From a virus, in the IMG/VR virus record IMGVR_UViG_3300038463_000401: a stretch of DNA of 64,000 bases; one strand, written 5' to 3'. The notes below the pieces were generated by a model. The model searched no databases and had not been told where the DNA came from. It saw only the letters and a program-made list of their open reading frames with translations. Below are positions 30,205-51,486 of this stretch, in pieces (position 1 is the first letter of the stretch; each line of letters opens with the position of its first letter). The position numbers were made by a program, and so were the translations under genes.

Positions 30205-30434
30205 TGGAACGTTTGTTCGACAAAGTCGCACAGCGTCACGACGAGATCGTCAAGGCGGCCTTTATTGGCACCATTCTTGGTGCTGCCGGCAAGGCTATGC
30301 TTAGGAACCCGCTCAGAACCCTAGGCGGCGTCTTTGATGCTCAGCAAGCTGGTTCTGTCGCGCGCAGCTCGGCTAAGAATATGGCCGGCCAGGGTATACA
30401 GGCAGCAGCACCCGCACTCGCAAACACCTTTTGA
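30201..30434 (+). CDS. Small virion-associated protein
   Basis: MMERLFDKVAQ...VKAA; overlapping stop/start junctions. Confidence 0.55.
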   Translation: MMERLFDKVAQRHDEIVKAAFIGTILGAAGKAMLRNPLRTLGGVFDAQQAGSVARSSAKNMAGQGIQAAAPALANTF

Positions 30435-30441
30435 GGTAGTC

Positions 30442-35002: not shown

Positions 35003-35032
35003 GCGGGGCGGAGCTTGTGGCTTCCGCCCCGC
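35003..35032 (+). terminator. Stem-loop after internal head genes
   Basis: GCGGGGCGGA...TCCGCCCCGC. Confidence 0.55.
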
Positions 35033-35055
35033 ACCCTCTTCTTAAGGAATCACCC

Positions 35056-35424
35056 ATGCCAACAGTGAATGATATCTTGGCCGACTTCGACCGGCTGACC
35101 GAGAAGAGAGCGGCTGCTGCCCCGCGGCGTGACCCAGCCGAGCAGGCTGACGACGTGGTCAAGCTTGCTGAGCGCTTGGTTCGCAATGACCAAGTCAAGG
35201 TAGCTGCGCCGTCTCGCGATGAGGGCTCGCTGATCGCCAAGCTCGCTAGCAGCCTTGCGCTTACCGATACCCTGCTCAACTTGGGCACCCTGTCCAAGAT
35301 CGCCGAGGTTGAGGAAAGGGCGCGTGCGGCGGGGGCCAGCGATGCCACGATCGACCAATTCTTCGAGAAGAACGCTTCGTCATTTCAGATGGTTAGCGTA
35401 CTTCAGTTAATGCCCTGGCTCTGA
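35056..35424 (+). CDS. Small head-associated protein
   Basis: EKRAA, VKLAE, VKVAA, AKLAS, SKIAE. Confidence 0.65.
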   Translation: MPTVNDILADFDRLTEKRAAAAPRRDPAEQADDVVKLAERLVRNDQVKVAAPSRDEGSLIAKLASSLALTDTLLNLGTLSKIAEVEERARAAGASDATIDQFFEKNASSFQMVSVLQLMPWL

Positions 35425-35431
35425 GGTATGC

Positions 35432-36349
35432 GTGGACGAGTCGCTTGAAAAAGCCGCAGTCAGTGCGGCCACCCGGACCGCATTAAGCCATGCGGCCAGA
35501 GGCGTCTCTTCCGTTCGCGCAAAGCTTCAGCGTCTTCTCAAGAAGGGGCGAACGCCGCGTCCGCTTGGCACGCCTAAGCGTCGTGCAGATGGCGTAGGTC
35601 TGAAAGTCCCCAAGCGTTTCGCCTCTGGCATTAGCGAGAAGGACAAAGAAAAGGCCTACCGCGGCTACCGGGCGCAGGCGATGCGGTCAGGGGAGGATTC
35701 CCTCGTCGGCTACTTCCCTAAGATGCTTGCCGAGAAACTCCTGGGCAAGAAGCGGGTAGGTAAGGCACTGTGGAAGGGAATACACGAGCCTGCTCTCAGG
35801 GCGGATACCGCGATCGGCGACGTTCTTGCCAAAATGCCAGGCGTCGGCGGCCTCTTTAAGTCCAAGGAACAGATCCCGTGGGGCAAGGGCCTCCACAAAG
35901 ATGTCACCCGCTCGTCGGCGCTGGGCCCCCTGACCAAGCTTCGAGATGTAGCAGAACCAATCGCTCTTGGTGTAGGATTGGAGCGTGGCATCCACAAAGT
36001 CAAAGAGATCACGGGGAGAAACCACGAGAACAGCATGGATGACTTTGAACTGCGAAAGGAAGCGGCTTCAACCATGCTCCGTCTCCATCAGGAGAATAAG
36101 GAGCATACGAAGCGGGCGCACGCTCTTCGGCTGTTGTATAAACAGGCGGAGCTCGGCCAATCAGTATTACCGCAGACCCTCAGTGAGCTCGAAGAAAAGC
36201 TTGCCTCACTAGTCAACCAAGATCTCGTAGTGTTTGAGAAGGCACTGGAATTAGCTGGCGGTTCAATGAAGCTGGGTGAGCTTAGCCGAGATGAGGCAAG
36301 GCCATTTAGCGCCGAAGAACAATTCCGGGCCTCCGTCCTTAGTGATTAA
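35432..36349 (+). CDS. Head assembly/scaffold-like protein
   Basis: EKAAV, RKEAA, YKQAE, EKLAS; helical C-terminus directly upstream of the decoration and capsid genes. Confidence 0.6.
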   Translation: MDESLEKAAVSAATRTALSHAARGVSSVRAKLQRLLKKGRTPRPLGTPKRRADGVGLKVPKRFASGISEKDKEKAYRGYRAQAMRSGEDSLVGYFPKMLAEKLLGKKRVGKALWKGIHEPALRADTAIGDVLAKMPGVGGLFKSKEQIPWGKGLHKDVTRSSALGPLTKLRDVAEPIALGVGLERGIHKVKEITGRNHENSMDDFELRKEAASTMLRLHQENKEHTKRAHALRLLYKQAELGQSVLPQTLSELEEKLASLVNQDLVVFEKALELAGGSMKLGELSRDEARPFSAEEQFRASVLSD

Positions 36350-36899: not shown

Positions 36900-37823
36900 A
36901 TGGAAGGTTTGGACGCCCAGACATTCAACAACCTCTTCATCGAGAGGTTGGACACGACGGAAGGGATCCAGAAGACCGCGGCTGGCGGCGCTGCTTTCGT
37001 CCGTGCGAAGATTCGTGAAATTGGCTTCGGCCGGCGCATCTTGCCGCCGGAATCCGTCACCCGCGCGGACCTGACGCGCTCCACCGATCACGACACGCTG
37101 ATCAAAATCGTGGACATCGAACACGATTCGACGGCGCTCGCGGTCAACTTCGCTTCCGAAGCGAACGAGCGCTACCTGCAAGGCAAGCGCTACGCGTTGC
37201 CGTTCTTCAAGATCGAGTCGGACAAGTTCATCAAGTCCGAAGGCGAGCTCTTGGCCTATGATTACCCGATCACGAAAGTGATCGAAGAAAACTCGGTCAA
37301 GGACATCCAACGCGTTGAAGACATCCAGTTCATCAACTACGCGGACGCTGCGATTGCCGTCACCGGCAAACTGCTCGTCTCGGCCGCCACCGCGGTTGAT
37401 CGCGTCCAGATGAACAGCCTGTTCAAGATGATCGACTTTGACAAGTTGACCGTCGGCTGCGCTTTGATGAACACCGTCGACTACGACGACTGGATGGTCC
37501 AACCGGCCACCGACGTCGGCTCGCCGCTCGCTTCCGAAATGACGGTCGAAGGGTACAAGTACCAGACCATCATGAACCGTAAGCTGGTCGTGACCAACAA
37601 GACGGACATCATCATCCCGGGCGAGATCTACGCCTTCACCGAGCCCGCATATCTCGGCAACTTCTTCATCCTGAACGACGTCAAGTTCTGGATCAAGAAA
37701 GAAGCCGACCTTGTGATCTGGAAGACGTGGGAATACATTGCCGAAGGCTTCGGCAATATCAAGTCGATCGCCAAGATCGAACTGCAAGTCCCGACGCCGC
37801 TCCCGGTCAACGGCACTGTCTAA
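36900..37823 (+). CDS. Major capsid protein (HK97-fold, inferred)
   Basis: 307 aa, strong RBS, strongly biased codon use, followed by a terminator; N-terminal IQKTA-AGG; REIGFGRRILPP. Confidence 0.8.
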   Translation: MEGLDAQTFNNLFIERLDTTEGIQKTAAGGAAFVRAKIREIGFGRRILPPESVTRADLTRSTDHDTLIKIVDIEHDSTALAVNFASEANERYLQGKRYALPFFKIESDKFIKSEGELLAYDYPITKVIEENSVKDIQRVEDIQFINYADAAIAVTGKLLVSAATAVDRVQMNSLFKMIDFDKLTVGCALMNTVDYDDWMVQPATDVGSPLASEMTVEGYKYQTIMNRKLVVTNKTDIIIPGEIYAFTEPAYLGNFFILNDVKFWIKKEADLVIWKTWEYIAEGFGNIKSIAKIELQVPTPLPVNGTV

Positions 37824-38454: not shown

Positions 38455-38922
38455 ATGTTCCAGGATGAACATGCCCGTAAGCGCAACGAGAAGGCGAAGA
38501 GATATCTTCGCCTTTTTATGCGAGACACGCCCGCAACCAACCGACTAATCCGCAGGGAAGAGTCGGATGACGATATGATGCAGTTCGCTATCGACATGGC
38601 GATCTCCGACTGGAATGCCACGACACCGCCTATTCAACCGGTAACGATCGGCAACTTCCCCAGCCTCTACCTGCTTTTGCATGGCGCGGCCGTCCAGCTC
38701 TTAAAGAGTGAAGGCCTCGTGCAGTCGCGCAACGAGCTGAACTACTCCGCCGGCGGGTCGTCGTTCATTCGTTCGAACAAGACTAACTACTACATGCAGT
38801 GGATGACGAACTTTGCGAACGAGTGGGAGACGAAGAAGCGGAATCTCAAGATCGCGCAGAACATTGGGCGCGGCTGGGGCGGCGTGAGTTCGGAATATGA
38901 CCAGCTCGGCTATAGTTGGTGA
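38455..38922 (+). CDS. Putative head-tail adaptor (neck) protein
   Basis: AIDMAISDWNATTPP...LLLHGA...SRNELNYS; position between capsid and tail genes. Confidence 0.65.
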   Translation: MFQDEHARKRNEKAKRYLRLFMRDTPATNRLIRREESDDDMMQFAIDMAISDWNATTPPIQPVTIGNFPSLYLLLHGAAVQLLKSEGLVQSRNELNYSAGGSSFIRSNKTNYYMQWMTNFANEWETKKRNLKIAQNIGRGWGGVSSEYDQLGYSW

Positions 38923-38929
38923 GATATCA

Positions 38930-39538
38930 ATGAGTTATAGACAAAGAGGCAGAGCAAGTTACAACGGCCGCGGGCGCAGTCCTACGGGCTGCCCCCGCTG
39001 CGAGGGCTCTGCGCCTATGACTGAAACCTTGTATAAGGCCAATCTAGGGGTGTTAAAGCCGTGCTGCACAGAGTGCGAACCAGAAGTTTTAGCCAAGAAG
39101 CAGCGGGATGTGGCTCGGGTAGCCGCATGGCGAAAGAAGAAAGAAGATCTGAAAGAATATCGAGCCGCTGAAGCGAGAAAGTACAGGGCAGATCATCCTG
39201 AAACGGTTCAGGCTTATCAGCGGGAGTGGGCCGAGAAAAATAAAGACAAGCTGCGTGCATGCAGTCGGGACTGGCGCAAAGCCAATCCCTGGGCAGGTCG
39301 CGCAGCTGCCGCGCACCACCGCGCTCTAATCCGCCAGCGCACTGTAAAGTGGGCAGACAGGGAGGCTCTCAAAGCCTTTTACAAAGCTTGCCCCGAAGGT
39401 ATGGTTGTCGACCACATCATCCCGCTCAAAGGTAAAAATGTTTGCGGTCTCCATGTAGTCAACAACCTGCAATACTTGACCTTTGAAGATAACGGTAAGA
39501 AGAGCAACCACTTCGACCAAGAAAAGATCCGCGCATGA
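38930..39538 (+). CDS. Free-standing HNH endonuclease
   Basis: VDHIIPLKGKNVCGLHVVNNLQYL...N..KSN; N-terminal Cys pairs. Confidence 0.9.
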   Translation: MSYRQRGRASYNGRGRSPTGCPRCEGSAPMTETLYKANLGVLKPCCTECEPEVLAKKQRDVARVAAWRKKKEDLKEYRAAEARKYRADHPETVQAYQREWAEKNKDKLRACSRDWRKANPWAGRAAAAHHRALIRQRTVKWADREALKAFYKACPEGMVVDHIIPLKGKNVCGLHVVNNLQYLTFEDNGKKSNHFDQEKIRA

Positions 39539-39774
39539 CCCTCGACCTCCATTTCTGGCGCGGCTTCACCAAAAGAGCCGAGATCCTCTCGGACTTCTCC
39601 GGCGATGGCAACGACCGCTGCTCTGAGCTTAAGTCCCACCACCCCTTGACCAGCATGATGTTTCGCACCGACGACGGCCCGGATCTTGGCAAGAGGTTTG
39701 TGACAACCGGAGGGCCTAGACTGGATGCGTTGACGATCCACGACCGCGAGCACCCGACTGGAGGTATGGCATGA
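39535..39774 (+). CDS. Small FWxGFxKxA-motif protein
   Basis: MTLDLHFWRGFTKRAE. Confidence 0.7.
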   Translation: MTLDLHFWRGFTKRAEILSDFSGDGNDRCSELKSHHPLTSMMFRTDDGPDLGKRFVTTGGPRLDALTIHDREHPTGGMA

Positions 39775-39962
39775 GCAGCTTCTGGGCAGGCTTCGAGAAA
39801 CGCGCCGCCGAGGTCATGGACGACACCTCGTTCTCCCAAACACCGATCACTCCGCGCCAGACTACCTTCATGACCGACATGGGCACGGCTTCCAAGAAGC
39901 GCAGCAGCGAGCATATAAAGTACGAAGACAACTACAGCACCACTGGTGCTTTTGGGTACTAA
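39771..39962 (+). CDS. Small FWxGFEKxA-motif protein
   Basis: MSSFWAGFEKRAAE. Confidence 0.7.
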   Translation: MSSFWAGFEKRAAEVMDDTSFSQTPITPRQTTFMTDMGTASKKRSSEHIKYEDNYSTTGAFGY

Positions 39963-40829
39963 ATGGCGGGTAAGCTAAAAGACATTCGTTTCGAACCGCT
40001 CAGCGTGCAAGTGCTGAGCATTCAGCACGTCTCGCGTGTGCTCATCGAATGGAACATCCGCAGGACTGCCCAGAACCTGAATAATCTCGTCTATTTCATA
40101 GACAGAGGCGAGAGCCCTTCAGAGATGAAGCAGCTCAACACCGTAGGCATCGGTGGCTACGCCATCTACCAGTTCGTTGACTACACGGCACAGCTCTTCG
40201 ATCTCTCAAAGGTCTATTACTACCGCGTGCGTGCCGTGGAGATGCAGTCCGGCGTCCCCGTGCAGACGTTCTACTCGGAGCACTCCACCTGGCAGGGTAA
40301 CCTTGACCTGGTCGGCCTGTATGTGGTCGAGGAGCACCTGTTCCTTGAACGGTTCGTGGCCGGCGTCCCCGTCATGATCTTCAAGAAGCGGCGCGAGGGC
40401 GCTAAGTGCCCTGAGTGCTGGGATCCTATCCTGCATAGGGTGACCAAGAGCAGCTGCACGACCTGCTACGGCACGGGGAAGTTGGGGGGCTACTACCCGC
40501 CGATCGAAGGCTGGATGCTTGTCGAGCCGGATCCTAAGATGGCCCAGGTTGCCGAGTGGGGCCGCTCTCAGCCCAACCAGACAGATCTCCAGTTCACAAA
40601 CTACCCGCTCCTAGTGGATGATGACGTTATCGTCGAGATGAAGTCCGACAAGCGGTGGAAGATATCGAACACGCGCAAGGCGGAGAAGAACCGGTCGACG
40701 ATGCTGCAGATCTTCCGGGTGTCCGCGGTGAACCCGACGGACATTGAATACAAGGTTTATGTACCTGAGGATCGGCGCGCGGAACTGGTCAAAGAGCTTG
40801 AGGAGCGTAACCGTGAGCGGGAGTTCTAA
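39963..40829 (+). CDS. Putative head-closure/neck protein with Zn-finger
   Basis: CPECWD...CTTCYGTGKLGGY; N-terminal Fn3-like YYYRVRAV. Confidence 0.65.
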   Translation: MAGKLKDIRFEPLSVQVLSIQHVSRVLIEWNIRRTAQNLNNLVYFIDRGESPSEMKQLNTVGIGGYAIYQFVDYTAQLFDLSKVYYYRVRAVEMQSGVPVQTFYSEHSTWQGNLDLVGLYVVEEHLFLERFVAGVPVMIFKKRREGAKCPECWDPILHRVTKSSCTTCYGTGKLGGYYPPIEGWMLVEPDPKMAQVAEWGRSQPNQTDLQFTNYPLLVDDDVIVEMKSDKRWKISNTRKAEKNRSTMLQIFRVSAVNPTDIEYKVYVPEDRRAELVKELEERNREREF

Positions 40830-41097
40830 CTTCTGGGCAGGCTTCGAGAAGCGCGCTGCTAGCATGTCCGGCATTCCGGGTATGCAGTCCGGCGCGTCTC
40901 GCCTGGGTACCACCACGGTGCCTAAGCCCGGGATCACGTCCGTGCCCAAGGCCGCCAAGCTAGCTCTGCCAACACCTAAGCCCATCGCGCCCACGACCAC
41001 GGCCGCCGTATTGCCGAAGGCCCCTTCCCCAACGAAGGTGCATGTCCCCAAGCCGACGGTGCAAGCTGGCGCTGGCGTGTCGAGCATGGCTATATGA
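40813..41097 (+). CDS. Small FWxGFEKxA-motif Pro-rich protein
   Basis: GTG start behind gaggag; MSGSSNFWAGFEKRAAS. Confidence 0.65.
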   Translation: MSGSSNFWAGFEKRAASMSGIPGMQSGASRLGTTTVPKPGITSVPKAAKLALPTPKPIAPTTTAAVLPKAPSPTKVHVPKPTVQAGAGVSSMAI

Positions 41098-41246
41098 GTA
41101 AGACCAGTGATATTGTAAAAGAATTGCCTGGGGTGGTTGTCCATAAGTCCGTCAAAGACGCGTTTCGCGCTATCTCGGGCGAGCTTGAAAAGAAACACAT
41201 TGCCGTCCTGAAGGCGAACAAGAATGGGCAAAAGCGGCGGAAGTGA
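41094..41246 (+). CDS. 50-aa basic protein (below ORF-track length cutoff)
   Basis: MSKTSDIVKELPGVVVHKSVKDAFRAISGELEKKH; overlaps at both ends. Confidence 0.5.
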   Translation: MSKTSDIVKELPGVVVHKSVKDAFRAISGELEKKHIAVLKANKNGQKRRK

Positions 41247-41889
41247 CATCGTAAACGGGGTCTATGGCGGTGGCGCCATCCGGCGGCGCTCTATAGACAA
41301 GGGCGAGCTGATCCCCAATGCCGCTATCTTTCTGAAGCGAACCACGTTAGAATTCCTCCAGATTATTTTTTCTACGAGAGCCCCCGGCTCACTCCATTAC
41401 GATGGAACGGATGACACAAGCAGCGAGATCCAGATCACCGATGTCCATGCAGTTGACCTAGACACCGCGAGTGCTAGGCCTGCAATCATCGCTGTTAGGG
41501 GTCCACTCAGTTGGCAAGGACTCGGTCTGGGGGGCGGCGCTGTAGAGCACCGCGAAATGTCAACTGGGAAGCACACTTTCAACGACCTGCTCACCGGATC
41601 AGTGGCTTTCTCTTGCATTAGTCGTGAAGGCATCGAAGCGGAACAGATTGGGCACCTAGTGTTCAACTCGTTCAAGTTCTTTCGACCCACCCTTCAAAAA
41701 GCTGGTTTCTTTACTATCAAAAGCCTAAGCATCGGTGCAGAAGCGTTGATCGAACAGGAAGGATCGGATGACCGCACAACGGTTGTACCGGTCTTTTTGA
41801 CCGCGCAGATCCAGGATCGATGGACCCTGAATGACGAGGCGGCAAAGAAGCTGAAGAACATTGTAATCTCGATCATGACCAACCCTTAG
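41224..41889 (+). CDS. Putative tail terminator/completion protein
   Basis: Directly upstream of the sheath gene; RPAIIAVRGP...SVAFSCIS...EAEQI. Confidence 0.6.
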   Translation: MGKSGGSDIVNGVYGGGAIRRRSIDKGELIPNAAIFLKRTTLEFLQIIFSTRAPGSLHYDGTDDTSSEIQITDVHAVDLDTASARPAIIAVRGPLSWQGLGLGGGAVEHREMSTGKHTFNDLLTGSVAFSCISREGIEAEQIGHLVFNSFKFFRPTLQKAGFFTIKSLSIGAEALIEQEGSDDRTTVVPVFLTAQIQDRWTLNDEAAKKLKNIVISIMTNP

Positions 41890-41899
41890 GAGCGAACCG

Positions 41900-44365
41900 A
41901 TGGCTTACCGGAGACCCGGGGTAACTGTTACCCAACAATTTGCGAACTTGGCGCCGGCGCTTGCTGCGTTCAGCTTGCCTAGCGTTACTGTCGGCCCGGC
42001 CTACCAGCTTGTCGCTAACGACGCGATGGGCAGCTACGCCGCGGCGCTGCATACCTACGGCTACCCGTCGCTTCTCGGCGGCGCGACGGTCGACACCGCG
42101 CTGGCCAACCCGAACGAGCCATTCCCGGCCACCAAGTTGCCGATCCAAGTCACATTGGGCAATGCGGTTGCCCAGATCGTCGCCCCTGCGACCACCGGTG
42201 CTGGCAGCGGCATGGCGTTCAGCGACGCGACGTCGAACATCTTCCAGTACGTGCTGCCGGGTGACCTCGTCGTCATCACCGAGGCCACGGGCGTCTCCAT
42301 CGTGGCCGCGCAAACCAATGGCCAGTCGTTCATGACTGCGGGCCTCCAGAATCGCTTGCAAGCGGGCACGCCTGGTCAATTCGCCAACGTGCAAGTTGGT
42401 GACAGTGTCGTTGTGACTGGCGCATCGCCGGCCGTTGCTGGCACCGTCACCGTTACGGCGAAGGCGCCGAACGACCTCTTGCTGCTCAGCGCCAACATCA
42501 ATGACGGCACAGCGGATTCGTCCGCGGTCAACTATTCCATCACTGGCACGCGCGGCGCGACCAATGCCGGCTCATATACCGTTAAGACGGTGACCGACGC
42601 CAATGACCTCGTGTTCACGAGCCCGCTGCCGCAAGCGCAAGAAGCGCCGCTCAGCTACTCTGTCAACCGCAGCGTCGGCTCCGTCGTTCTGAATCCGCTG
42701 GCCTCGCCAGGCAACGGTTTTACGGCGACGACCTCCGGCGTTACACTGCCGGCCGACCTAACTGTGACGCTTGGCCTCAACACCTTCCCGCTCGTCTCCG
42801 GCGCGGTGTCCGCGAACTACCGCGCGCTCCGCACAGATATGGCCGCGAATGTGAGGGAGTACACGGACCTAGCCGACATCACGGCCGCCTTTGGCCAAAA
42901 CCAGATCACCCCGCAAAACCCGCTGGCCTACGGCTTGTCGATCATGTTGCAAAACACGGTCACGCCCGTAAACGGTCTTGGCCTTGACGCCAATGCGGTC
43001 ACGAACGAGACGCTATCCTACACGAACGCGTCGGAAGTCCTGGGCCTCACCCAGATGTACGCGATTGCGCTGCTCTCGCAAACGCCGACGGTCCACCAAC
43101 TCTTCCACACCCACGTGGACCAGTTCTCTGCCCCCGCGATGGGCCTGGAGCGGGTGGCAATCTTCAACTCGCAGCTGCAAACCATCGCCATCCTCCAAGC
43201 GGAAGAGACCACGGTCCTTACGCTCAACGGATCGCGTATCCTCGTCAACACCCAGGTTGACGGCGTGGCCGCGTTTGCCAGCCCAACGCACCTCAATGAC
43301 CCTACATCGGGCCAGTTCACCAATGTGCAACCTGGCGACTCGGTCGTGGTCCAAGCGGGCACGAATTCAATCCCCGGCACGTACACAGTGGTGACGAAGA
43401 CTGACAACAACAACTTGGTGTTGTCGGGCAGCATCATCTCGTCGGGCTCGTCGGCGGACTTCCAGTACTACATCGTCCGTCTTGACGGCCTTGGCGCCGA
43501 CGGCATAACGCTGTATGACCGCAACGCGGCATTCCTCGACAACGGCGTGGCCGCTGGTCACTATGTGACGATCGAGGCTGGCACATACAACGGCCGGTAC
43601 CCTGTCGGCTCAGTGGTGTCCAACACCGAGCTCTTGCTAGGAACCGCGATCCCCGGCGTGGCCTCGCTCGTCACGGCGGTCGACTACCAAGTTGACCGTA
43701 ACCTGCAAAAGAACGAACAAGCGGCGTTGGTCGCTGGCTATAGCTCGAGCTTCGCGGATCGCCGCATGGTCCATGTCTGGCCGGACGTCCTCCAAGTCCC
43801 GTCAGGCCAAAACATCGTGAACGTCCCCGGCTTCTATGCGGCTTGCGCAATCGCGGCGTTGACCACGGGCCTCCCGACCCAGCAGGGCTTCACGAACCTG
43901 TCGTTCTCCGGCTTCCTCGGCCTGCTGCACAGCACGGGTTATTTCAGCCCGACCGACCTCGATACGATCGCGGGCGGCGGTACGATGATCATGGCTCAAG
44001 ACGGCCCGCAGCAAGCGCTGTACGTCCGCCACGAACTCACGACCGACACCTCGTCGATCAAGTTCCAAGAGTACATGGTCACGAAGAACGTCGACTTCAT
44101 CGCGAAGTTCCTTCGCACCACGTTCAAGCCGTACATCGGCTTGTACAACATCGTCCAGTCGACGCTGGACACGCTCAAGACGACCGCGCAGGCTGCGCTC
44201 AAGTTCCTCAACGGCAACCCGTTGCCGAAGATCGGAAGCGTTATCATCAGCGGCACGCTGACGAGCATCGCCCAGGACTCAACGCAGATCGATACGGTCG
44301 ACATGGTGTTCACCTTGAACATCCCGATTCCGCTCAACGATCTTGACATCACTATCAACGTCTAA
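41900..44365 (+). CDS. Contractile tail sheath protein
   Basis: 821 aa; MAYRRPGVTV start; sheath-like C-terminus (QALYVRHELTTD...VTKNVDFIAKFLR...PLNDLDITI). Confidence 0.88.
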   Translation: MAYRRPGVTVTQQFANLAPALAAFSLPSVTVGPAYQLVANDAMGSYAAALHTYGYPSLLGGATVDTALANPNEPFPATKLPIQVTLGNAVAQIVAPATTGAGSGMAFSDATSNIFQYVLPGDLVVITEATGVSIVAAQTNGQSFMTAGLQNRLQAGTPGQFANVQVGDSVVVTGASPAVAGTVTVTAKAPNDLLLLSANINDGTADSSAVNYSITGTRGATNAGSYTVKTVTDANDLVFTSPLPQAQEAPLSYSVNRSVGSVVLNPLASPGNGFTATTSGVTLPADLTVTLGLNTFPLVSGAVSANYRALRTDMAANVREYTDLADITAAFGQNQITPQNPLAYGLSIMLQNTVTPVNGLGLDANAVTNETLSYTNASEVLGLTQMYAIALLSQTPTVHQLFHTHVDQFSAPAMGLERVAIFNSQLQTIAILQAEETTVLTLNGSRILVNTQVDGVAAFASPTHLNDPTSGQFTNVQPGDSVVVQAGTNSIPGTYTVVTKTDNNNLVLSGSIISSGSSADFQYYIVRLDGLGADGITLYDRNAAFLDNGVAAGHYVTIEAGTYNGRYPVGSVVSNTELLLGTAIPGVASLVTAVDYQVDRNLQKNEQAALVAGYSSSFADRRMVHVWPDVLQVPSGQNIVNVPGFYAACAIAALTTGLPTQQGFTNLSFSGFLGLLHSTGYFSPTDLDTIAGGGTMIMAQDGPQQALYVRHELTTDTSSIKFQEYMVTKNVDFIAKFLRTTFKPYIGLYNIVQSTLDTLKTTAQAALKFLNGNPLPKIGSVIISGTLTSIAQDSTQIDTVDMVFTLNIPIPLNDLDITINV

Positions 44366-44376
44366 GGGGTGAACTA

Positions 44377-45102
44377 ATGGCAGGGACAACCGACTTCACG
44401 ACGTGGGACTTTCACAACTACCACGTTCAGCAAGAGCTGACCGGCGGACAGTTTGTGAGCGCAGAAACCACGCTTATCGCGGCGGGCCCACCCGAGTTGT
44501 CCGATATCGGCGCTGGCGGCGCCGCGGGTGCTGGCACGGTTTACCCGATCGGTCTTTTGGAGTCCGTGGGCCTGCAGCAGAATAAGCAGCTCCAACGGAT
44601 CTTTGAAATCGGCTCAAGCCGCAGCTACTTCGTCCCCGGACGGAACATTGGCTCGCTGTCGATCGGCCGGACGTTTTACTTCGGCCCGTCGCTACTTCGC
44701 GTACTCTATGCCTACTATGCACAGAACGCGGCGTCGTCTCAGACCGGTGCGGACAACTTCGTCCTTGGTGGGGCGGCCGCGACGGCGATCACTGAAGACG
44801 GGAACACCCTCACCCCGAATCCTTATGACGTCCTGCTGCCTGGCTATGGTTCTGGCCTGCACACCGTCGTCCGCTCGCCAGGCGAAGGCTACTTCTGGAT
44901 CGACCTGGCGTCGGACATCTTCGCCCAGCCTACGGGTATGGCGATATACTTCAAGGACTCGAACGACCTCAGCCTTGGCGCGGTGTACCTGGAAAACTGC
45001 TATGTCCAGGGCCACCAGATGAACATCTCGAGCGGTTCTGTGCTTGTCATGGAAGGCGCGTCGATGCAGTATGATCAGCTGAGGCCGATCAAGGTCCTCT
45101 GA
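44377..45102 (+). CDS. Tail tube protein
   Basis: Follows the sheath gene; QQNKQLQRIFEIGS..SYFVPGR..GSLSIGR, YLENCY. Confidence 0.8.
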   Translation: MAGTTDFTTWDFHNYHVQQELTGGQFVSAETTLIAAGPPELSDIGAGGAAGAGTVYPIGLLESVGLQQNKQLQRIFEIGSSRSYFVPGRNIGSLSIGRTFYFGPSLLRVLYAYYAQNAASSQTGADNFVLGGAAATAITEDGNTLTPNPYDVLLPGYGSGLHTVVRSPGEGYFWIDLASDIFAQPTGMAIYFKDSNDLSLGAVYLENCYVQGHQMNISSGSVLVMEGASMQYDQLRPIKVL

Positions 45103-45113
45103 GGTAACCCAGA

Positions 45114-45296
45114 ATGACCGGTTCTTTCTGGAATGGATTTGAGAAGCGGGCTAGTGCGGTGACAGAAGGCGTAAAAGCCTTCGGCCGCAAAGCCCGTCTT
45201 TTTAGTCAAGGAGCCCTCACCGGAGCCGCGGCGGTAGGCGCTGGCGTGGGGCTCCATCATGCTGCCCAGACGCCTACCATGCAGCCAGTGGGTTGA
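45114..45296 (+). CDS. Small FWxGFEKxA-motif protein with Gly/Ala hydrophobic tail
   Basis: MTGSFWNGFEKRAS...GAAAVGAGVGL. Confidence 0.7.
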   Translation: MTGSFWNGFEKRASAVTEGVKAFGRKARLFSQGALTGAAAVGAGVGLHHAAQTPTMQPVG

Positions 45297-45298
45297 CC

Positions 45299-46732
45299 GT
45301 GGATAGCTTCTGGTCGGGGTTTGAGAAGGCCGCGGCTCTGAGAGCTACGACGGCCCTCGAACCGCACCAGGAGCGTGTTAAGCGTCGGCTGGAGAAGAAG
45401 CCAGGGCTGCTTGTTTACCATGGGCTTGGCTCGGGCAAGACTCTATCGAGTCTGGCCGCGACGCAGGGCATGAAGACTGACGTGGTCGTTCCGGCGAGCT
45501 TGCGTAACAACTACCGCAAGGAAGTTGAGAAGCATACGACGGGCTTCAAGCCGAACGTCATGAGCTACGAAGGCGCCACCAAGACAGGGCCAACACCTGG
45601 CAGCAAGGCGCTCGTCGTGGACGAAGCGCATAACCTAGGGGATACCCAGTCCAAGAGGACACAGGCAATGCTTGCGCAGGCGCCCGCATATCAGCGGCGT
45701 ATGCTCCTGACTGGGACGCCTATCAAAAACCGGCCGAGCGAGCTCGCGCCGCTTTTGCGGATGGTTCGCGGGGACAGCGCAGTCCCGCTAGACCCTAAAG
45801 CGTTTGACGCTCGCTTCGTAGAAGAGAGAGCCCATAAGCCAGGGTTCTTCGCTAAAGTGCTGCATGGCGCAAAGCCAGGCGTTACCTACCACATGAAGAA
45901 CAAGAAGGAATTCTCAGACCTCGTCAAAGGCTATGTGGATTTTTACGAACCGGATAAAGCGCACTTCCCCTCAGTCAGCCATGAGACGATTGAGGTGCCT
46001 CTTAATAAAGAGCAAAACGAGTACAACTCGTATCTTTTAGGTAAAGCCGGGCCTGCGCTGCGGTGGAAGATCAAGTCGGGGATGCCGCCATCTAAGCGCG
46101 AGGCTGCTCAACTTAACGCCTTCCTTAGCGGTGCCCGACAAGTTGGCAACTCAACTAAAGCCTTTGGCGGTAGTGGAGTTTCCCCCAAGTTTCAGCGAGC
46201 TCTGACCGAGTTGGAAGAACGTAATAATCAAAACCCGAATTTTAGAGGCCTAGTCTATTCAAATTATTTGGGCTCAGGTGTCAAGCAGTATGCTGAGGAA
46301 CTAGACAAACGCGGCATCAGTAATCGTTTGTTCACCGGCTCTCTTTCTGACAAAGAGAGAAGGCAGGCAGTAGAAGACTATAACAATGGCAAGGTGAAAG
46401 TCCTTCTTATCTCTGGGGCAGGCGCGCATGGCTTGGACCTCAAGGGCACTCGCTTAGTCCAGCTCATGGAGAGTGCATGGCACCAACCAAAGCTAGAACA
46501 GGCCGCCGGGCGCGCGATTAGGTTCAAGTCACACGAGCATCTACCGCCAGATCAGAGGCATGTAGAAGTACAACAGTACCTGTCCTCCCAGCCAAAGACG
46601 TTGATGAACAAGTTGTTGAAGACAAAACAAGACTTGAGCGCTGATCAGTATTTGAATAGGCTTAGCCAAGAGAAAGCCCGCACCAACGAAGAGTTCCTGA
46701 GTGTGTTGCGGGCGGAGGGGCAGCGTGAGTAG
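45299..46732 (+). CDS. SNF2/NPH-I-like superfamily 2 helicase with N-terminal FWxGFEKxA tag
   Basis: MDSFWSGFEKAAA; HGLGSGKT, VVDEAHN, LTGTPIKN, GAHGLDLKG, QAAGRAIR. Confidence 0.9.
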   Translation: MDSFWSGFEKAAALRATTALEPHQERVKRRLEKKPGLLVYHGLGSGKTLSSLAATQGMKTDVVVPASLRNNYRKEVEKHTTGFKPNVMSYEGATKTGPTPGSKALVVDEAHNLGDTQSKRTQAMLAQAPAYQRRMLLTGTPIKNRPSELAPLLRMVRGDSAVPLDPKAFDARFVEERAHKPGFFAKVLHGAKPGVTYHMKNKKEFSDLVKGYVDFYEPDKAHFPSVSHETIEVPLNKEQNEYNSYLLGKAGPALRWKIKSGMPPSKREAAQLNAFLSGARQVGNSTKAFGGSGVSPKFQRALTELEERNNQNPNFRGLVYSNYLGSGVKQYAEELDKRGISNRLFTGSLSDKERRQAVEDYNNGKVKVLLISGAGAHGLDLKGTRLVQLMESAWHQPKLEQAAGRAIRFKSHEHLPPDQRHVEVQQYLSSQPKTLMNKLLKTKQDLSADQYLNRLSQEKARTNEEFLSVLRAEGQRE

Positions 46733-47504
46733 AGAGATTCCGCTTACGCAGGGTAAAGTCGCTATTGTAGATGATTGCGACTATCCGCGAGCATCCAAAT
46801 TTAATTGGTCTCTAGCAGAGCGACGCGGCAAGCTTTACGCTATACGCACAACAGCTGCAGAAGGAAAAACCGAACGAGTTTATCTTCACCGCTATTTATT
46901 GGACGCGGCCCAAGGCGCTCAAGTAGATCACCGAGATGGGGACGGTCTTAATAATAGACGAGACAATATTAGATTAGCCACCCCACTTCAAAACGTCCGC
47001 AATCGTCGCAAAGGCGACAGTGGCTGTACAGCCAGCAGGTATAAAGGCGTCTTTCTACAAGCAAGGCACAAGCATCTAAATAAACCATGGTTTGCTCGGA
47101 TTGGCCTGGAAGGGGGTCACCTCAATTTAGGGAGTTACCACTCCCAGGAAGAGGCAGCTCTCGCCTATAATGCTGCGGCGATCAAGTACTTTGGTGAGTT
47201 TGCCTGCCTTAACGTTGTCTACGGACCTCCCAAGCCCTACATCCCCGAAAATCTCCATATAGCCGGTATCTGGGGGCAGGGTAAACGTCGCCTTAACCAG
47301 ACCAGCTCATCCTATAAGGGTGTTTCTTTTGTAAAAATATCCAAAGCACGCCCGTGGATGAGCTATCTTAACTGCAGGGGCAAGAGATATTTACTGGGCC
47401 GATACGCTACTGAAGTTGAAGCCGCTTTAGCGTACAATGAAGCTGCTAAGAAGCATTTCGGCGAGTTTGCTCGCCTCAACATCATCGAGGGGGTGTCACC
47501 ATGA
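46725..47504 (+). CDS. HNH endonuclease with two AP2 DNA-binding domains
   Basis: YLHR...VDHRDGDGLNNRRDNIR; two YKGV...W.A...LG.Y...EAALAYN..A.K.FGEFA.LN repeats. Confidence 0.92.
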   Translation: MSREIPLTQGKVAIVDDCDYPRASKFNWSLAERRGKLYAIRTTAAEGKTERVYLHRYLLDAAQGAQVDHRDGDGLNNRRDNIRLATPLQNVRNRRKGDSGCTASRYKGVFLQARHKHLNKPWFARIGLEGGHLNLGSYHSQEEAALAYNAAAIKYFGEFACLNVVYGPPKPYIPENLHIAGIWGQGKRRLNQTSSSYKGVSFVKISKARPWMSYLNCRGKRYLLGRYATEVEAALAYNEAAKKHFGEFARLNIIEGVSP

Positions 47505-47692
47505 GTTTTAAAGTTTGCTGGGACTCGACAAGAAACTGGCGCTGCGTGGCCATCCAACTGTTGGATGCCAACGCCAACGTCGTTATGCAAACACACATGT
47601 TTGCGGGCCCGTTCCTGAAATGGCACATCCCGATGCGTAAGCGCTGGATGACACGTAAGTACGCGGTGCTCGCCGCGGCGAATGCTCAATGA
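47501..47692 (+). CDS. Hypothetical protein
   Basis: 63-aa ORF with overlapping junctions. Confidence 0.5.
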   Translation: MSFKVCWDSTRNWRCVAIQLLDANANVVMQTHMFAGPFLKWHIPMRKRWMTRKYAVLAAANAQ

Positions 47693-48750
47693 CACCTGCC
47701 TTCTGGGACGGCATAGAAAAACAGGCGCTTAACGCGGCCAAGGCGAGAGCTTTGGCCGCAAAGCATGGCCTTGTTCCGGAAGGGGCGTGGAAGTGGGGGC
47801 TACGGCAGCTGCGCAAAGGCAAGACTAAAGAGCAGCTAGGCCAGGCGCCTGCCGGTCTAATAAATGCTTCTAAGAGATTAGGGTCGGAAAATGAGGCCGG
47901 TGCTCTATGGGGCAAGGGCGTTAAGGGAACCAGAGGTAAACTCCACGTCGGCAACGAGGGCACTACAGATATCGGCGGGGAGAGAAAAGCGTTATTTGCT
48001 GCGATAAAGAAAGACTATAAAAATCAGCTTGCGCAGCACGAATCCATGAATGCAGACCCACGAGCTGCATTGAAGGCACAGGGTTATGCTAATGCACTCA
48101 ATATGCAGCTAATGAAACCAACTGCGGGTATGAATACGCTTCACACCCATCCAGCGCATATTGAGCCCCAAGTCCGTGCACAGGAAAAATCTATGATAGA
48201 GGGACTTCGCAACGTAAAACCAACTGACTATGGCAGCCATCCTCTCGCACACAGGTTAAACAAGCTGGAGGGTAGAGAGTTCTCCAATATAAGAAGAGAC
48301 CTTGATGCCCGTCAGAAAAGCAGCCATTTCTTATTGCATCCCAGTGGGTTTAGAAGCGGAATACCCAATAACCCGATGGCTACCGATGTGGGACGGTTCC
48401 TTAAATCAGACGTAGGCACCCACCACAACATAGTCTCCCCAGGGGTCGGCGTTGGTGTGCATACGATCCGTCCAGATAAACAGGGCGGGGGGAAAAAGCT
48501 CCGCTCCCTGCTCTTCAAAGATGATTCGATGCCAGAGAAAAAACAGGCTACGCTCGACCAGCTGTTTCATCGCCAGTTCAAGAAATCTGCAGCGGCAGAC
48601 TCGCCGTCGATCCTTAGCGACTGGTTCCAGGAGGGCGAAGACGAGCAGCGCAAAGCCAAAGAAGATAGTAAGGTAGACACGCGGGTCAGCCCGCGAGACC
48701 TTAGCGAATGGCAAGGCCCGGAAGCTTGGTACAGATTTGGGAGTCCGTAA
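47689..48750 (+). CDS. FWxGxEKxA-tagged protein with possible JAB/MPN-like HxH site
   Basis: MTPAFWDGIEKQA; TLHTHP; later PMATD. Confidence 0.65.
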   Translation: MTPAFWDGIEKQALNAAKARALAAKHGLVPEGAWKWGLRQLRKGKTKEQLGQAPAGLINASKRLGSENEAGALWGKGVKGTRGKLHVGNEGTTDIGGERKALFAAIKKDYKNQLAQHESMNADPRAALKAQGYANALNMQLMKPTAGMNTLHTHPAHIEPQVRAQEKSMIEGLRNVKPTDYGSHPLAHRLNKLEGREFSNIRRDLDARQKSSHFLLHPSGFRSGIPNNPMATDVGRFLKSDVGTHHNIVSPGVGVGVHTIRPDKQGGGKKLRSLLFKDDSMPEKKQATLDQLFHRQFKKSAAADSPSILSDWFQEGEDEQRKAKEDSKVDTRVSPRDLSEWQGPEAWYRFGSP

Positions 48751-49196
48751 TGAACGAGGCATTCTGGGGCGGTTTTGAGAAGCAGGCAGGCCTACTCCAA
48801 GCCGTAGGCTCCGTTGGCGGCCTCGCTCGTGGATCCGTTCAGCGGGCGGGCACTGCTCTCAGAACTGGCAGTTCGGCTGCCGGAGAGGCGATCACGCGCG
48901 GCGCCATCCAAGCGCGGCAGGGAGTATCTTCTGGATACCGCGCCGGCCAGCGCAAAGCATTGGGTATGAGCCCGAAGCAATATGGGGAAATGCGCCGCGG
49001 GCCGACGGCCGTGGCTAAGGCAGCTCCGGCGGCAGCCGCGGCGGCGCCCGCTGCCGCACCAGGACTTGCGCAGCGCGGCCTAGCTGCGGCGCGCGCTAAC
49101 CCACTTGTCACTGCAGGCGCCGTTGGCGCGGCGGGCGTTGGCGCGGGTATTCTCGCGGGTCACCGCCCACAGCCGCAACAGGGGCAAGCCATTTGA
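48750..49196 (+). CDS. FWxGFEKxA-tagged Gly/Ala-rich protein
   Basis: MNEAFWGGFEKQAG; C-terminal AGAVGAAGVGAGILAG. Confidence 0.7.
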   Translation: MNEAFWGGFEKQAGLLQAVGSVGGLARGSVQRAGTALRTGSSAAGEAITRGAIQARQGVSSGYRAGQRKALGMSPKQYGEMRRGPTAVAKAAPAAAAAAPAAAPGLAQRGLAAARANPLVTAGAVGAAGVGAGILAGHRPQPQQGQAI

Positions 49197-49885
49197 AACG
49201 GGTTGCCACAGTCGCAGTGATCTATGACGGCAAACTCCTCATGGGGAAGCGGCGCGACAACGGTCGTTGGACTTGCCCAGGCGGCCATCTTAACGAAGGG
49301 GAAGAGCCGCTTGCTGGCGGCGTGCGCGAGCTCTACGAGGAGTCTGGGATCGCGGCGCCGGCGCGCGAGCTCAAGCAGATCGGCTTCAACAAGGTGACCA
49401 AGCCAGACGGCGGGAAGCTGGAAGTCACCGCTTACAAGTACGAGCCGAAGGCCCGGCCGTCCACCTCGATGCGCGCCGACCCCGATCTGGAAGTCCACCG
49501 GTGGCGGTGGATTGATGTTTCACGTGGAACACTTCCTCCGCACATCGCAGACCATTTGCACGTGCCACTTGATCGCAACGTCCTCCTGAAAGGATTGGGT
49601 ATCAAAGCTATGGAAAAGACCGCGTTCTGGAACGGCTTCGACAAACAAGCAATGGTGCCGTCGCTCAACCCTCTAGGCGCGCTCGCCGCTGGTGCGAAGA
49701 GCTTGGTCGGTAAAGCCGTGGCTTCGCCCTTAGCAGGCAAAGCGATGAACGCTGGTGTGCGTGCCGCTGAAGTGGCAAAGGCTCACCCGAAGACTGCGCT
49801 TGGCCTCGGCGCGGCTGGTGCGGCTGGCGTGGGTTACATGGCTGGGCGGCCGTCTGCTCCTGCTGGGCCGCGCTACCCATACTAG
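49193..49885 (+). CDS. Nudix hydrolase fused to an FWxGFxKxA/Gly-Ala module
   Basis: Nudix box GGHLNEGEEPLAGGVRELYEESG; internal MEKTAFWNGFDKQAM. Confidence 0.9.
   Translation: MKRVATVAVIYDGKLLMGKRRDNGRWTCPGGHLNEGEEPLAGGVRELYEESGIAAPARELKQIGFNKVTKPDGGKLEVTAYKYEPKARPSTSMRADPDLEVHRWRWIDVSRGTLPPHIADHLHVPLDRNVLLKGLGIKAMEKTAFWNGFDKQAMVPSLNPLGALAAGAKSLVGKAVASPLAGKAMNAGVRAAEVAKAHPKTALGLGAAGAAGVGYMAGRPSAPAGPRYPY
49516..49531. promoter_or_regulatory. parS: parS centromere-like site (chromosomal ParB type)
   Basis: TGTTTCACGTGGAACA; its reverse complement TGTTCCACGTGAAACA is a canonical chromosomal parS 16-mer. Confidence 0.7.
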
Positions 49886-49972: not shown

Positions 49973-50599
49973 CTAGCGGATGCTCACGTTCACCAGATGC
50001 AACCCCGTCGTCGACTGCACCTTCACCGTAAAATAATCCTCGCCGGCGGCGCTGCGCAGCGCGGTGACCGCGGTTAGCGGATCGCTGAGGGCGACCCCGT
50101 CAATTTCCATCACGATGTCCCCGTCGTTAAGACCGACCTGGTCGAAGATGCTGCCGGGGTCGATGTCGGTCAGCCTAAAGCCCACGCCGGGCACGAGGGT
50201 GGCTGCGGCCTGCATCATGACCTTAGCGAGGCCAGGGCCGGCGATATCGTTGCGCAGGGCCGTGCTCAGCGTCACCTCGTCGTCATGCCGCTCGACCTCC
50301 GGCGCCGCCGGCGAGGGCTCAGGTGTCTCTGGGCTGTCTCCGGCCTCGAGCCAAAAGCGACGCTTACCGTCACTTACCAGAGCTCGGCGGGGCTCGACCT
50401 TAACGACCGTCCAGCCGTGGAAGGTACTACCCTCTTCAGCGGTTACCGTCGGCGGCGGGTCGTAGTCGGCGCCCGCATAATATTCGTCGTCAGTGTGATG
50501 GACCTCTCGGCCGCGGTCGGCGATCTGGAAGGTGGCGTAGCTCGTCTTCGTTGAAACGATCGTCCCGACGAGGATGAGGTTTGCTATAAGAGTAAGCAT
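49973..50599 (-). CDS. GspC-like protein (HR domain + PDZ)
   Basis: LVGTIV...ATF...VVKVEPRRALV...L; PDZ GFRLTDIDPGSIFDQVGLNDGDIVMEIDG. Start placed at ATG 50599. Confidence 0.7.
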   Translation of the reverse strand: MLTLIANLILVGTIVSTKTSYATFQIADRGREVHHTDDEYYAGADYDPPPTVTAEEGSTFHGWTVVKVEPRRALVSDGKRRFWLEAGDSPETPEPSPAAPEVERHDDEVTLSTALRNDIAGPGLAKVMMQAAATLVPGVGFRLTDIDPGSIFDQVGLNDGDIVMEIDGVALSDPLTAVTALRSAAGEDYFTVKVQSTTGLHLVNVSIR

Positions 50600-50712
50600 C
50601 CTTCGATTGTAATTGACTTTGGCTGCGCGGCCAAATATGGTCGGGGAAACACGAACTATGTGGCGGGGCGGACGGGGTGGTAAGCTTAGGCTTACCATAT
50701 CTGGAGGTGCCC

Positions 50713-51486
50713 ATGTATCAGGCCAAGTACGCTTACGGCTGTAAACCGTCACGTCATCACGTCGGCGATATGCACTATGCCTGCGCGGGGCTTGCCCCGA
50801 CTCAGCCGGTGCTTAGCTGGCGCGCGCAGTGCTCAGCGCCGTTCAACCAGCTCCAGACTTCGTCCTGCACGGGGAACGCCTCGGCGAAAGCGCTACAGCT
50901 GCGCCGTACGCTTGAGGGCAAGCCGGCCATGGTCAGCAATCCGTCCAGGGACTTCCTCTATTATAACGGCCGCGCGCGCGAGGGCACCACTGGCCAAGAT
51001 GGCGGCGCAACGATCCGCGACGTCGGTATCGGAGCGACCGAGCAGGGTTTCTGCGACGAGACGCTTTGGGAGTTTACCGATGCCAACCTATTGGTGAAAC
51101 CCAATCAAGCCGCCTACCAGGCCGCGGTGAAGGAAGAGGGCGCGCAATTCATGTGGGTGCCACAATCGGGCGGTGCTCTTTTAATTGCATTAAAAACAGC
51201 CCTGGCCGCGAAAGACCCGATCTTCTTTGGCATTACGGTCTACGAGAGCTTTGAGTCCGCACAGACGGCAAAGACCGGCCGCGTGCCTATGCCGCAGTCG
51301 TGGGAGCAGATCCTCGGCGGCCACGCGGTTTGCATGATCGGCTGGAACGACCACATCAAATGCTTTGAGTGCGCTAACTCCTGGGGCTCTGGCTGGGGAG
51401 ACCATGGCTATTTTTGGCTACCCTACTCTTTCGTAGAAGACCAGAACCTGGCATCGGACTTCGGCGCGATCAAGGTTGTAGCCTAA
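50713..51486 (+). CDS. Papain-family (C1A, xylellain-like) cysteine protease, no signal peptide
   Basis: NQLQTSSCTGNA, GGHAVCMIGW, ANSWGSGWGDHGYFWLPY; RBS ggaggt. Confidence 0.92.
   Translation: MYQAKYAYGCKPSRHHVGDMHYACAGLAPTQPVLSWRAQCSAPFNQLQTSSCTGNASAKALQLRRTLEGKPAMVSNPSRDFLYYNGRAREGTTGQDGGATIRDVGIGATEQGFCDETLWEFTDANLLVKPNQAAYQAAVKEEGAQFMWVPQSGGALLIALKTALAAKDPIFFGITVYESFESAQTAKTGRVPMPQSWEQILGGHAVCMIGWNDHIKCFECANSWGSGWGDHGYFWLPYSFVEDQNLASDFGAIKVVA

Follow-up and report, generated by a model that had tools for sequence, protein, structure and literature searches.

A portable nine-residue tag on unrelated late proteins of uncultured phages, a candidate label for prohead loading and proteolytic release

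Why would a helicase, a Nudix hydrolase and a set of small proteins encoded by one phage carry the same nine residues? The question is posed by a 64,000-nucleotide stretch of viral DNA (the window; IMG/VR virus record IMGVR_UViG_3300038463_000401), which corresponds in reverse complement to bases 16858-80857 of an 83,937-bp IMG/VR virus record rated complete. Here a peptide with the consensus FWxGFEKxA, hereafter called the tag, recurs on nine open reading frames (ORFs), most of them in the late operon. We think it rather probable that this nonapeptide joins a docking anchor to a protease cut site and loads cargo proteins into the phage head for injection, packaging and cleavage being the functions that we infer.

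Nine copies of one peptide in a clade of uncultured phages

A six-frame scan of the window and of the whole 83,937-bp record with the regular expression FW.[GSA][FILMV].K.A returned nine matches, all within the window, compared with a mean of 0.02 in 50 shuffled genomes. A position matrix trained on relatives only, and not on the window, gave the nine copies 23.7-40.8 bits; everything else in the window, as well as the reversed sequence, scored below 10 bits, so that the nine copies stand apart as a class of their own instead of forming the upper end of a continuum. Eight of the nine tags start 3-6 residues past a plausible start codon (ATG in six ORFs, GTG at 40813, and either TTG at 45293 or GTG at 45299 for the helicase), and a Shine-Dalgarno-like GGAG precedes several of the tagged ORFs. 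The scan thus confirmed the first-pass annotation, made from the sequence alone, which had placed the motif near the N-terminus of eight ORFs and inside the ninth, encoding a Nudix hydrolase. The proteins that follow the tag had also been described as otherwise unrelated. This holds for the SNF2 helicase and the Nudix hydrolase, both recognised by Pfam, and by eye for the Pro-rich and Gly/Ala-rich peptides, but less well for the product of the ORF at 48750 and the tail after the tag at 49625, which share a Gly/Ala-rich low-complexity similarity.

Relatives were retrieved independently of the tag with the capsid gene of the window, yielding 30 loci with 73-86% identity, largely on tag-bearing contigs. 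All capsid-anchored loci of at least 13 kb hold two to eight tags (62 tags in 290 kb in total), and the 113 tagged ORFs of the relatives fall into 57 similarity clusters; the co-occurrence of tag and capsid gene and the diversity of cargo that the first-pass annotation had proposed to look for in related genomes were both found. Only about a dozen of the 45 longer cargo sequences have a Pfam match, to the SNF2 helicase, Nudix, DUF5661, DUF6582, DUF5754, Gly-zipper and DnaJ families. A degenerate DNA pattern for the peptide, with which we scanned viral contigs and 596 Gb of bacterial and archaeal genomes, matched 62 stretches of viral contigs, many with two to five copies, and translation gave 127 copies, mostly of the form M-x-x-F-W. 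In the cellular genomes there were at least 120 matches; those listed are all single, show no N-terminal preference and have no phage or window-like genes beside them. Cellular proteins, where an equal frequency of the motif would have spoken against the first-pass proposal, thus contain it as singletons at what looks like chance level. The tag thus marks a large, uncultured clade of tailed phages. The only cultured phages with related capsid, protease and virion genes (32-40% identity) are Salmonella phage Arash and Vibrio phages D69, D181 and D148. Literature searches for the motif turned up no description of it, and a search on K-x-A protease specificity found nothing relevant.

Selection acts on the protein sequence of the tag and not on its DNA. 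When copies are compared, identity is 26-29% over the 30 bases flanking the tags on each side; within conserved tag codons it is 48% at the third base as against 91% at the first two, and every synonymous codon is in use across 112 distinct tag instances. A chance origin or a repeated DNA element is ruled out by the shuffles, the bit scores, the random identity of the flanks and the free synonymous sites. Residue conservation was read from an unbiased sample consisting of every FW-x-G-F in the capsid-anchored loci (n=53), in which the second half of the motif is unselected. Of these 53 tags, 51 keep K7, 49 keep A9 and 30 keep E6; R, Q or K predominates at position 8, and the residue at position -1 is a small one. 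Cleavage after Glu, as in phage T4, was judged less likely because E6 is only weakly conserved. A Sec or Tat signal peptide was likewise rejected, the leader being 12-15 residues long in total, having no hydrophobic core and occurring internally and at the C-terminus as well.

The tag is not confined to the N-terminus, as the comparison with relatives showed: depending on the phage, the Nudix cargo bears it at either end, at both ends or internally. Most truly internal tags are directly preceded by another K-x-A (E-K-T-A, K-K-A or K-Q-A) and are therefore bracketed by K-x-A on both sides. The 353-residue cargo contains a degenerate second tag (FHRQFKKSA, 48565-48591) ahead of its C-terminal module, and this module is a separate tagged ORF of 56-63 residues in relatives; Pfam, PHROG and Atlas searches with this cargo gave no usable match, and by eye it may contain JAB-like H-x-H motifs. 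The Pro-rich cargo (cargo cluster 1) is kept at the same slot in 11 relatives.

K-x-A sites in the head protease, its neighbours and distant helicases

The prohead protease gene of the window encodes a protease domain (approximately residues 1-195; AlphaFold2 (AF2) predicted local distance difference test score (pLDDT) of ~85-94) followed by a helical part of about 400 residues. Among 48,161 chains, its best structural match is T4 gp21 (5jbl_A; Z 10.1, root-mean-square deviation 2.8 A, 132 aa) and the second is the varicella-zoster virus (VZV) protease (1vzv_A; Z 7.3, 3.1 A, 110 aa). Both matches come from the VIA wide search; an ordinary Foldseek search with the full-length model of 640 aa gave no clear match, with T4 gp21 at rank 20 only, and a single-sequence PDB search was empty. 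By its model, the head protease has the fold of T4 gp21 and the herpesvirus assemblins. S136, H82 and H83 are invariant in an alignment of 46 sequences and are candidates for a Ser-His-His catalytic triad. The family comprises 540 homologue clusters in metagenomes, all unnamed.

Two other features of this enzyme were observed. C146, C149 and C160 are invariant and belong to a C-x2-C ... C-x-H pattern (residues 146-162, 32096-32146), also present in Arash, Vibrio D69 and Bacillus phage G, that looks like a zinc site; to our knowledge, such a site is not a known feature of T4 gp21. In some relatives (L090:3536-6613 and L093:3329-6532) a LAGLIDADG intein of ~400 residues is inserted near residue 152, close to the invariant Ser136 and the Cys cluster, and several database homologues of 1025-1074 aa have the same insertion.

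K-x-A, the end of the tag, recurs in the protease at candidate sites for self-cleavage, release and maturation (Table 1). Arash gp222, Vibrio D69 and phage G gp19 (31-40% identity) also have G-L-x-K-x-A before and x-K-V-A after the protease domain. The phage G protein is annotated as a head maturation protease (PMC12484599), and the multi-omics paper on that phage reports no cleavage data. The capsid protein contains E-G-I-Q-K-T-A at residues 21-27 (36960-36980), with K-x-A in 28 of 29 relatives and G-L-x-K-E-A at the equivalent position of the Arash and D69 capsid proteins. Between these two genes, the scaffold-like protein has two tag-like motifs, both conserved, and a Gly/Ala-rich C-terminal tail like that of the tagged small proteins; one of the two motifs, YERGFEKTA, is among the weaker variants reported earlier in scaffold-like proteins. 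K-x-A occurs 10 times in this protein (5.6 expected), eight times in the Ala/Glu-rich protein encoded before it (2.6 expected, P=0.0025) and six times in the small protein after it (1.15 expected). The family of the protein encoded at 35432-36349, of which 34 homologues were aligned, has a tag-like N-terminus in relatives, K-E-A-F-[L/F]-x-G-F-x-K-x-A, and where the protein is split into two ORFs the C-terminal part begins a few residues before K-x-A. The element common to other phage lineages is G-hydrophobic-x-K-x-A, with the F-W pair specific to this clade, and the first-pass reading has to be amended to this extent.

These sites also bear on whether the tag is cut at all. The whole motif might instead bind a virion component and stay on the mature protein, with K7 and A9 as contact residues, and the existence of C-terminal copies would suit such an uncleaved docking label. 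We nevertheless consider it improbable: K-x-A without the aromatic part recurs at both ends of the protease domain, as far away as phage G; it directly precedes internal tags and hence stands on both sides of them; two modules that a tag links in one phage may be encoded by independent tagged ORFs elsewhere; and fold relatives of the protease cut after Ala (PMC4498786).

The helicase allows the leader to be followed across lineages. Its homologues form 748 clusters in all, and we compared the best 120, using the 118 with a recognisable Walker A motif. The leader has a median length of 12 residues. The canonical FW tag is present in 45 of the 118 clusters, and K-x-A within at most 14 residues before the helicase body in 91 (107 if K-x-[A/S] is accepted), compared with 3.9% of equal windows inside helicase bodies. 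More distant homologues have leaders of the form F-L-x-G-F-x-K-x-A, others end in G-L-I-K-F-A or E-K-I-A, and some carry an extra domain joined via K-x-A. In locus L220, with the same synteny, all five tagged genes have [F/L/I]-[L/I/Q]-x-G-F-[I/L]-K-x-A; the four tags of L219 read F-[L/I]-x-G-F-x-K-x-A; and in the more distant L217 the leaders of the helicase neighbours end in G-I-E-K-T-A and G-L-T-K-S-A. Across these loci, the variable leader positions change together within the cargo of one genome, K-x-A remaining fixed. Such lineage-wise co-variation is expected if one co-evolving receptor reads all the cargo and one conserved protease cuts it.

The same comparison bears on a further alternative, in which the nonapeptide is simply an extended site for the head protease, the cargo reaches the prohead by other means, and the leader might, for instance, hold enzymes in an inactive state or set the moment of their release. 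The core G-hydrophobic-x-K-x-A is indeed common to the protease's own site and the capsid site, and distant helicase homologues retain K-x-A and not the FW pair. However, F-W is near-invariant among the cargo proteins of the clade and varies in step across those that one genome encodes, and it does not appear to be needed for protease recognition since the protease and capsid sites are without it. In addition, C-terminal tags would lose just one or two residues if K-x-A were their sole function, and the unrelated small proteins have no other common feature able to target them. A propeptide without a targeting role is, in our judgement, unlikely, though the least unlikely of the alternatives that we weighed.

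The window helicase is 38% identical to Arash gp217 over residues 22-476, and this homologue was detected in purified Arash virions together with the RNA polymerase subunits encoded beside it (PMC10585845). A comparable arrangement was observed in a 120-kb relative from another lineage (L219:3270-9299). Here the genes for a tagged Gly-zipper protein and the tagged helicase are immediately preceded by one that encodes a fused beta/beta-prime-like RNA polymerase of 2009 residues; this layout echoes that of Arash, in whose virions the polymerase subunits are abundant.

Cargo slots of the late operon and the route into the virion

The late operon is syntenic in the relatives. It begins with a first gene, possibly encoding the portal although neither Pfam nor PHROG gave a match for it, followed by the protease fusion, four small Ala/Glu/Lys-rich proteins, the capsid protein and two small conserved genes, and continues with slot 1, a 288-aa gene, slot 2, genes of 221, 821 and 241 aa, and slot 3. 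The three slots are filled by tagged ORFs whose number and content vary between phages with ~80% identical capsid proteins, slot 3 containing three to seven of them. The homologues of the 821- and 241-aa products in Arash, gp236 and gp237, are described as structural proteins of a myovirus (PMC10585845). We did not name the window proteins sheath or tube because PDB profile searches with both were empty and the AF2 model of the 241-aa protein (pLDDT 35) was unusable. The 821-residue protein (41900-44365) contains only 12 Lys (1.5%) and 95 Ala, and the neighbouring 241-residue protein only 3 Lys.

This layout raises the possibility that the tag places payloads in the tail lumen or on the baseplate, as in extracellular contractile injection systems. 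The main tag array follows the gp236 and gp237 homologues and closes the operon, and in a 108-kb relative (L053) three tagged ORFs come after the baseplate wedge gene. On the other hand, tag-like motifs and K-x-A are concentrated between the protease and capsid genes and absent from the two virion genes before the array, and the prohead protease works inside the head. The K-x-A count is zero in the 221-, 821- and 241-aa proteins, but the avoidance of K-x-A in mature virion proteins is not significant, and its absence is statistically weak because these proteins are poor in Lys. Gene position is in any case a weak guide in phages, and the genes of the T4 internal proteins are also dispersed. 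Loading of the tail seems to us even less likely than an uncleaved docking label.

Gly/Ala-rich, glycine-zipper-like hydrophobic ends followed by a short basic or Pro-rich tail were observed in the scaffold-like protein and three tagged proteins (34850-34996, 45230-45296, 49080-49196 and 49780-49885), and one relative matches Pfam Gly-zipper_YMGG; these could be membrane-inserting ejection proteins or core-packing elements. Such hydrophobic tails, present on many cargo proteins, together with the resemblance of F-W-x-x-F with K/R to amphipathic membrane-targeting helices, would also agree with a role outside the virion, where the tag would act as an amphipathic membrane helix or as a label for a chaperone, a modifying enzyme, a compartment import system or another phage or host machine. 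Yet G4, K7 and A9 are near-invariant, which argues for recognition by a specific protein, the tagged genes lie in late morphogenesis operons, related motifs occur in head-core proteins, and the helicase homologue was found in Arash virions (PMC10585845). A non-virion role is the least probable of the alternatives.

We therefore return to the loading of cargo into the prohead, which could proceed as follows. The aromatic front F-W-x-G-F would be the anchor that docks the cargo to a conserved component of the prohead core, possibly the protease-scaffold fusion, the scaffold-like proteins with tag-like motifs or the inner face of the capsid protein. K-x-A, within G-hydrophobic-x-K-x-A, would be the recognition and cut site of the gp21/assemblin-fold protease. 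Once activated in the closed prohead, the protease would trim itself, the scaffold-like proteins and the N-terminus of the capsid protein, and would remove the label from the cargo or cut on both sides of an internal label. The freed cargo, which includes the SNF2 helicase, the Nudix hydrolase, small basic proteins rich in Gly/Ala and numerous proteins of unknown function, would stay in the capsid and exit with the DNA at infection. The rapid gene turnover in the cargo slots would be a consequence of a label that is short and works at either end of a protein or at a domain joint.

The portable prohead-loading tag cut at K-x-A that the first-pass annotation had proposed is thus partly supported. 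Each computational test made here agrees with it, through its clade specificity, the selection at the protein level, the at least 57 unrelated cargo clusters in late-operon slots, the conserved K-x-A at the ends of the protease domain, at the capsid N-terminus and at internal tags, and the Arash helicase in virions. Amendments concern its position, its general element and the certainty of the capsid as the loading site. The last is favoured by the K-x-A and tag-like motifs of the head module and made less certain by the tagged genes next to baseplate genes in larger relatives.

Several observations weigh against this interpretation. All tag-bearing phages are uncultured; packaging and cleavage are what we infer, and there are several candidates for the docking partner. 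Arash gp217 lacks a leader altogether, the set of 116 'virion' proteins in the proteome of this phage may be too inclusive (PMC10585845), and a scan of Arash and Vibrio D69 for the FW tag with one mismatch allowed found none. T4 gp21 cuts after Glu, whereas the putative site here is after Ala, and ORFs ending exactly at K-x-A are not enriched over chance. Conservation of K-x-A in the capsid protein says little alone because much of that protein is conserved, and enrichment of K-x-A is weak on its own because the motif is of low information and Lys/Ala-rich helices raise its frequency. Finally, tagged genes also adjoin tail and baseplate genes, and the copy at 13258 on the minus strand sits among genes of unknown function with no recognised virion module.

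Besides the features of Table 1, a second ORF upstream of the first tag slot (38897-39538) is HNH-like by eye and has no Pfam match; the homing-endonuclease-like elements in and near the tag array may help shuffle cargo genes. The late operon is closely followed by an untagged gene of the papain family (Peptidase_C1; 50677-51486, plus strand) and a gene for a PDZ-domain protein (49973-50752, minus strand). Between the window and the 83,937-bp record there are only 17 base differences, grouped into two short patches (4990-5059 and 49392-49413); the second falls within the Nudix gene and may be strain variation or an assembly variant.

Table 1. Features of the window discussed in the text. The first base of each tag is the lower coordinate, except for copy 9 on the minus strand (13258).
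Feature	Positions	Strand	Remarks
Tag copy 1, FWRGFTKRA	39553-39579	+	In ORF 39535-39774, 79 aa; start overlaps preceding stop (ATGA)
Tag copy 2, FWAGFEKRA	39780-39806	+	In ORF 39771-39962, 63 aa; GGAGG upstream; 40.8 bits
Tag copy 3, FWAGFEKRA	40831-40857	+	Pro-rich ORF, probable GTG start 40813, end 41097
Tag copy 4, FWNGFEKRA	45126-45152	+	ORF 45114-45296, 60 aa, Gly/Ala-rich tail
SNF2-family helicase	45293-46732	+	Tag copy 5, FWSGFEKAA, 45308-45334; Pfam SNF2-rel_dom, Helicase_C
353-aa cargo	47689-48750	+	Tag copy 6, FWDGIEKQA, 47701-47727; cargo cluster 3
Basic Gly/Ala-rich protein, 148 aa	48750-49196	+	Tag copy 7, FWGGFEKQA, 48762-48788; cargo cluster 0
Nudix hydrolase, 230 aa	49193-49885	+	Pfam NUDIX 5.5e-14; intact Nudix box 49283-49348
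Tag copy 8, FWNGFDKQA	49625-49651	+	Residues 145-153 of Nudix ORF, after Nudix domain; A-M-E-K-T-A before, Gly/Ala-rich tail after
Tag copy 9, FWTSFEKQA	13232-13258	-	88-aa ORF 13004-13270, outside late operon; cargo cluster 4, common to 5 relatives
First late-operon gene	30334-31614	+	Directly upstream of protease; conserved V-V-K-T-A 30529-30543
Prohead protease with helical scaffold-like C-terminal domain, 640 aa	31661-33583	+	phrog_18299 1.6e-6 (head maturation protease)
Candidate N-terminal self-cleavage site, Y-L-E-K-T-A, residues 8-13	31682-31699	+	L9, K11, A13 invariant in 46 homologues
Candidate release site, H-M-K-V-A, residues 204-208	32270-32284	+	K206, A208 invariant; end of protease domain, low-pLDDT linker 196-219
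Candidate maturation site, L-S-K-T-A, residues 587-591	33419-33433	+	K589 invariant; low pLDDT; ~49 residues from C-terminus
Ala/Glu-rich head-module protein	33599-34231	+	T-K-T-A 33650-33667, V-K-T-A 33893-33910; sites kept in 13-18 of 18 homologues
Scaffold-like acidic/helical protein	34277-34996	+	Tag-like YERGFEKTA 34382-34408, VFDGLAKLG 34535-34561; aligned with 21 homologues
Small head-module protein	35017-35424	+	F-F-E-K-N-A 35359-35376 in 16 of 16 homologues
Conserved head-module protein	35432-36349	+	Degenerate S-L-E-K-A-A 35441-35458; conserved L-R-K-E-A-A 36050-36067
Major capsid protein	36900-37823	+	phrog_2522 1.2e-12; 33% identical to Arash major capsid protein
Two conserved virion genes (821 aa, 241 aa)	41900-45102	+	Precede main tag array; homologues of Arash gp236, gp237
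HNH_3 + AP2 homing-endonuclease-like gene, untagged	46701-47504	+	Pfam; inserted in tag array

Injected phage proteins are prime candidates for counter-defence and host takeover because they act before any phage gene is expressed, and they are usually found only through virion proteomics of cultured phages. If the label means 'packaged', dozens of candidate injected proteins of uncultured phages can be named from sequence alone, and the conserved SNF2 helicase, the Nudix hydrolase and many proteins without a family would be among them. Being shorter and more flexible in position than the capsid-targeting sequence (CTS) of T4, the label is also of interest for protein delivery by phage particles. 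Tentatively, and with less confidence than we place in prohead loading itself, we can imagine G-hydrophobic-x-K-x-A as a universal 'cut here' code in a large, mostly uncultured group comprising this clade, Arash-like phages and phage G relatives, to which each lineage adds its own anchor; the injected proteome could then be read from sequence, and the label would be a natural, position-independent packaging tag of nine residues that could be moved onto foreign proteins.

Comparison with known loading and maturation systems

The closest parallel is the CTS of T4, which consists of 10 residues with a targeting part and a processing part, and the T4 protease gp21 itself bears a cleavage-type motif at residue 9 (PMC9026906). 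As with the internal proteins IPI-III and Alt, from which gp21 removes the CTS, a leader of about 10 residues is common here to unrelated proteins, with a targeting part preceding a processing part; the protease has the same predicted fold and its own cleavage-type motif near the N-terminus, and the cargo genes turn over fast among relatives. The differences are equally clear. The leaders have no sequence similarity, the putative site is K-x-A, cut after Ala, in place of L/I-x-E, cut after Glu, and the tag also occurs at the C-terminus and at domain joints, bracketed by two K-x-A. Moreover, a helical domain of 400 residues is fused to the protease, the phage belongs to a different lineage, in that Arash and Vibrio D69 are the only cultured phages with a related capsid gene, and the function, shown experimentally in T4, is here a prediction from sequence. 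On these grounds, the system would work like the T4 CTS and is not homologous to it.

Payloads of extracellular contractile injection systems carry N-terminal signals of ~50 disordered residues that are not cut and that load the tail tube. They resemble the tagged proteins in that the signal is terminal, can be transferred and is found on varied payloads whose genes close a structural operon, and differ in that the signal of the phages is a nine-residue motif tied to head-protease sites.

Herpesvirus assemblins cut after Ala at the release (R) and maturation (M) sites of a protease-scaffold chain (PMC4498786). Like the herpesvirus protein pUL26, the protease of the window has an N-terminal domain of predicted assemblin fold and then a helical, scaffold-like part in one chain, and its candidate Ala-ending sites lie at the domain boundary (K206-V-A208) and ~50 residues from the C-terminus (K589-T-A591), the latter in a position analogous to the herpesvirus M-site (PMC4498786). 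By this analogy, the C-terminal part would act as a scaffold and would be cleaved at these sites. The consensus differs, K-x-A here compared with Y-[V/L]-[K/Q]-A or V-x-A in the herpesviruses. We know of no family of unrelated tagged cargo in herpesviruses.

In giant phages such as phiKZ, 201phi2-1 and SPN3US (gp245), many proteins of the head interior, destined for ejection, lose an N-terminal propeptide to a gp21-like protease (PMC10052503). With lengths of 111-254 residues in most cases, these propeptides share no portable nonapeptide and are cut at a small-x-Glu motif (PMC10052503). If the tag does load the prohead, targeting in the style of T4 would be a general and evolvable strategy for which a second chemistry exists, with the cut placed after Ala, as it is by the herpesvirus enzymes. 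What differs from the T4 system is the peptide, its probable cut site and its freedom of position.

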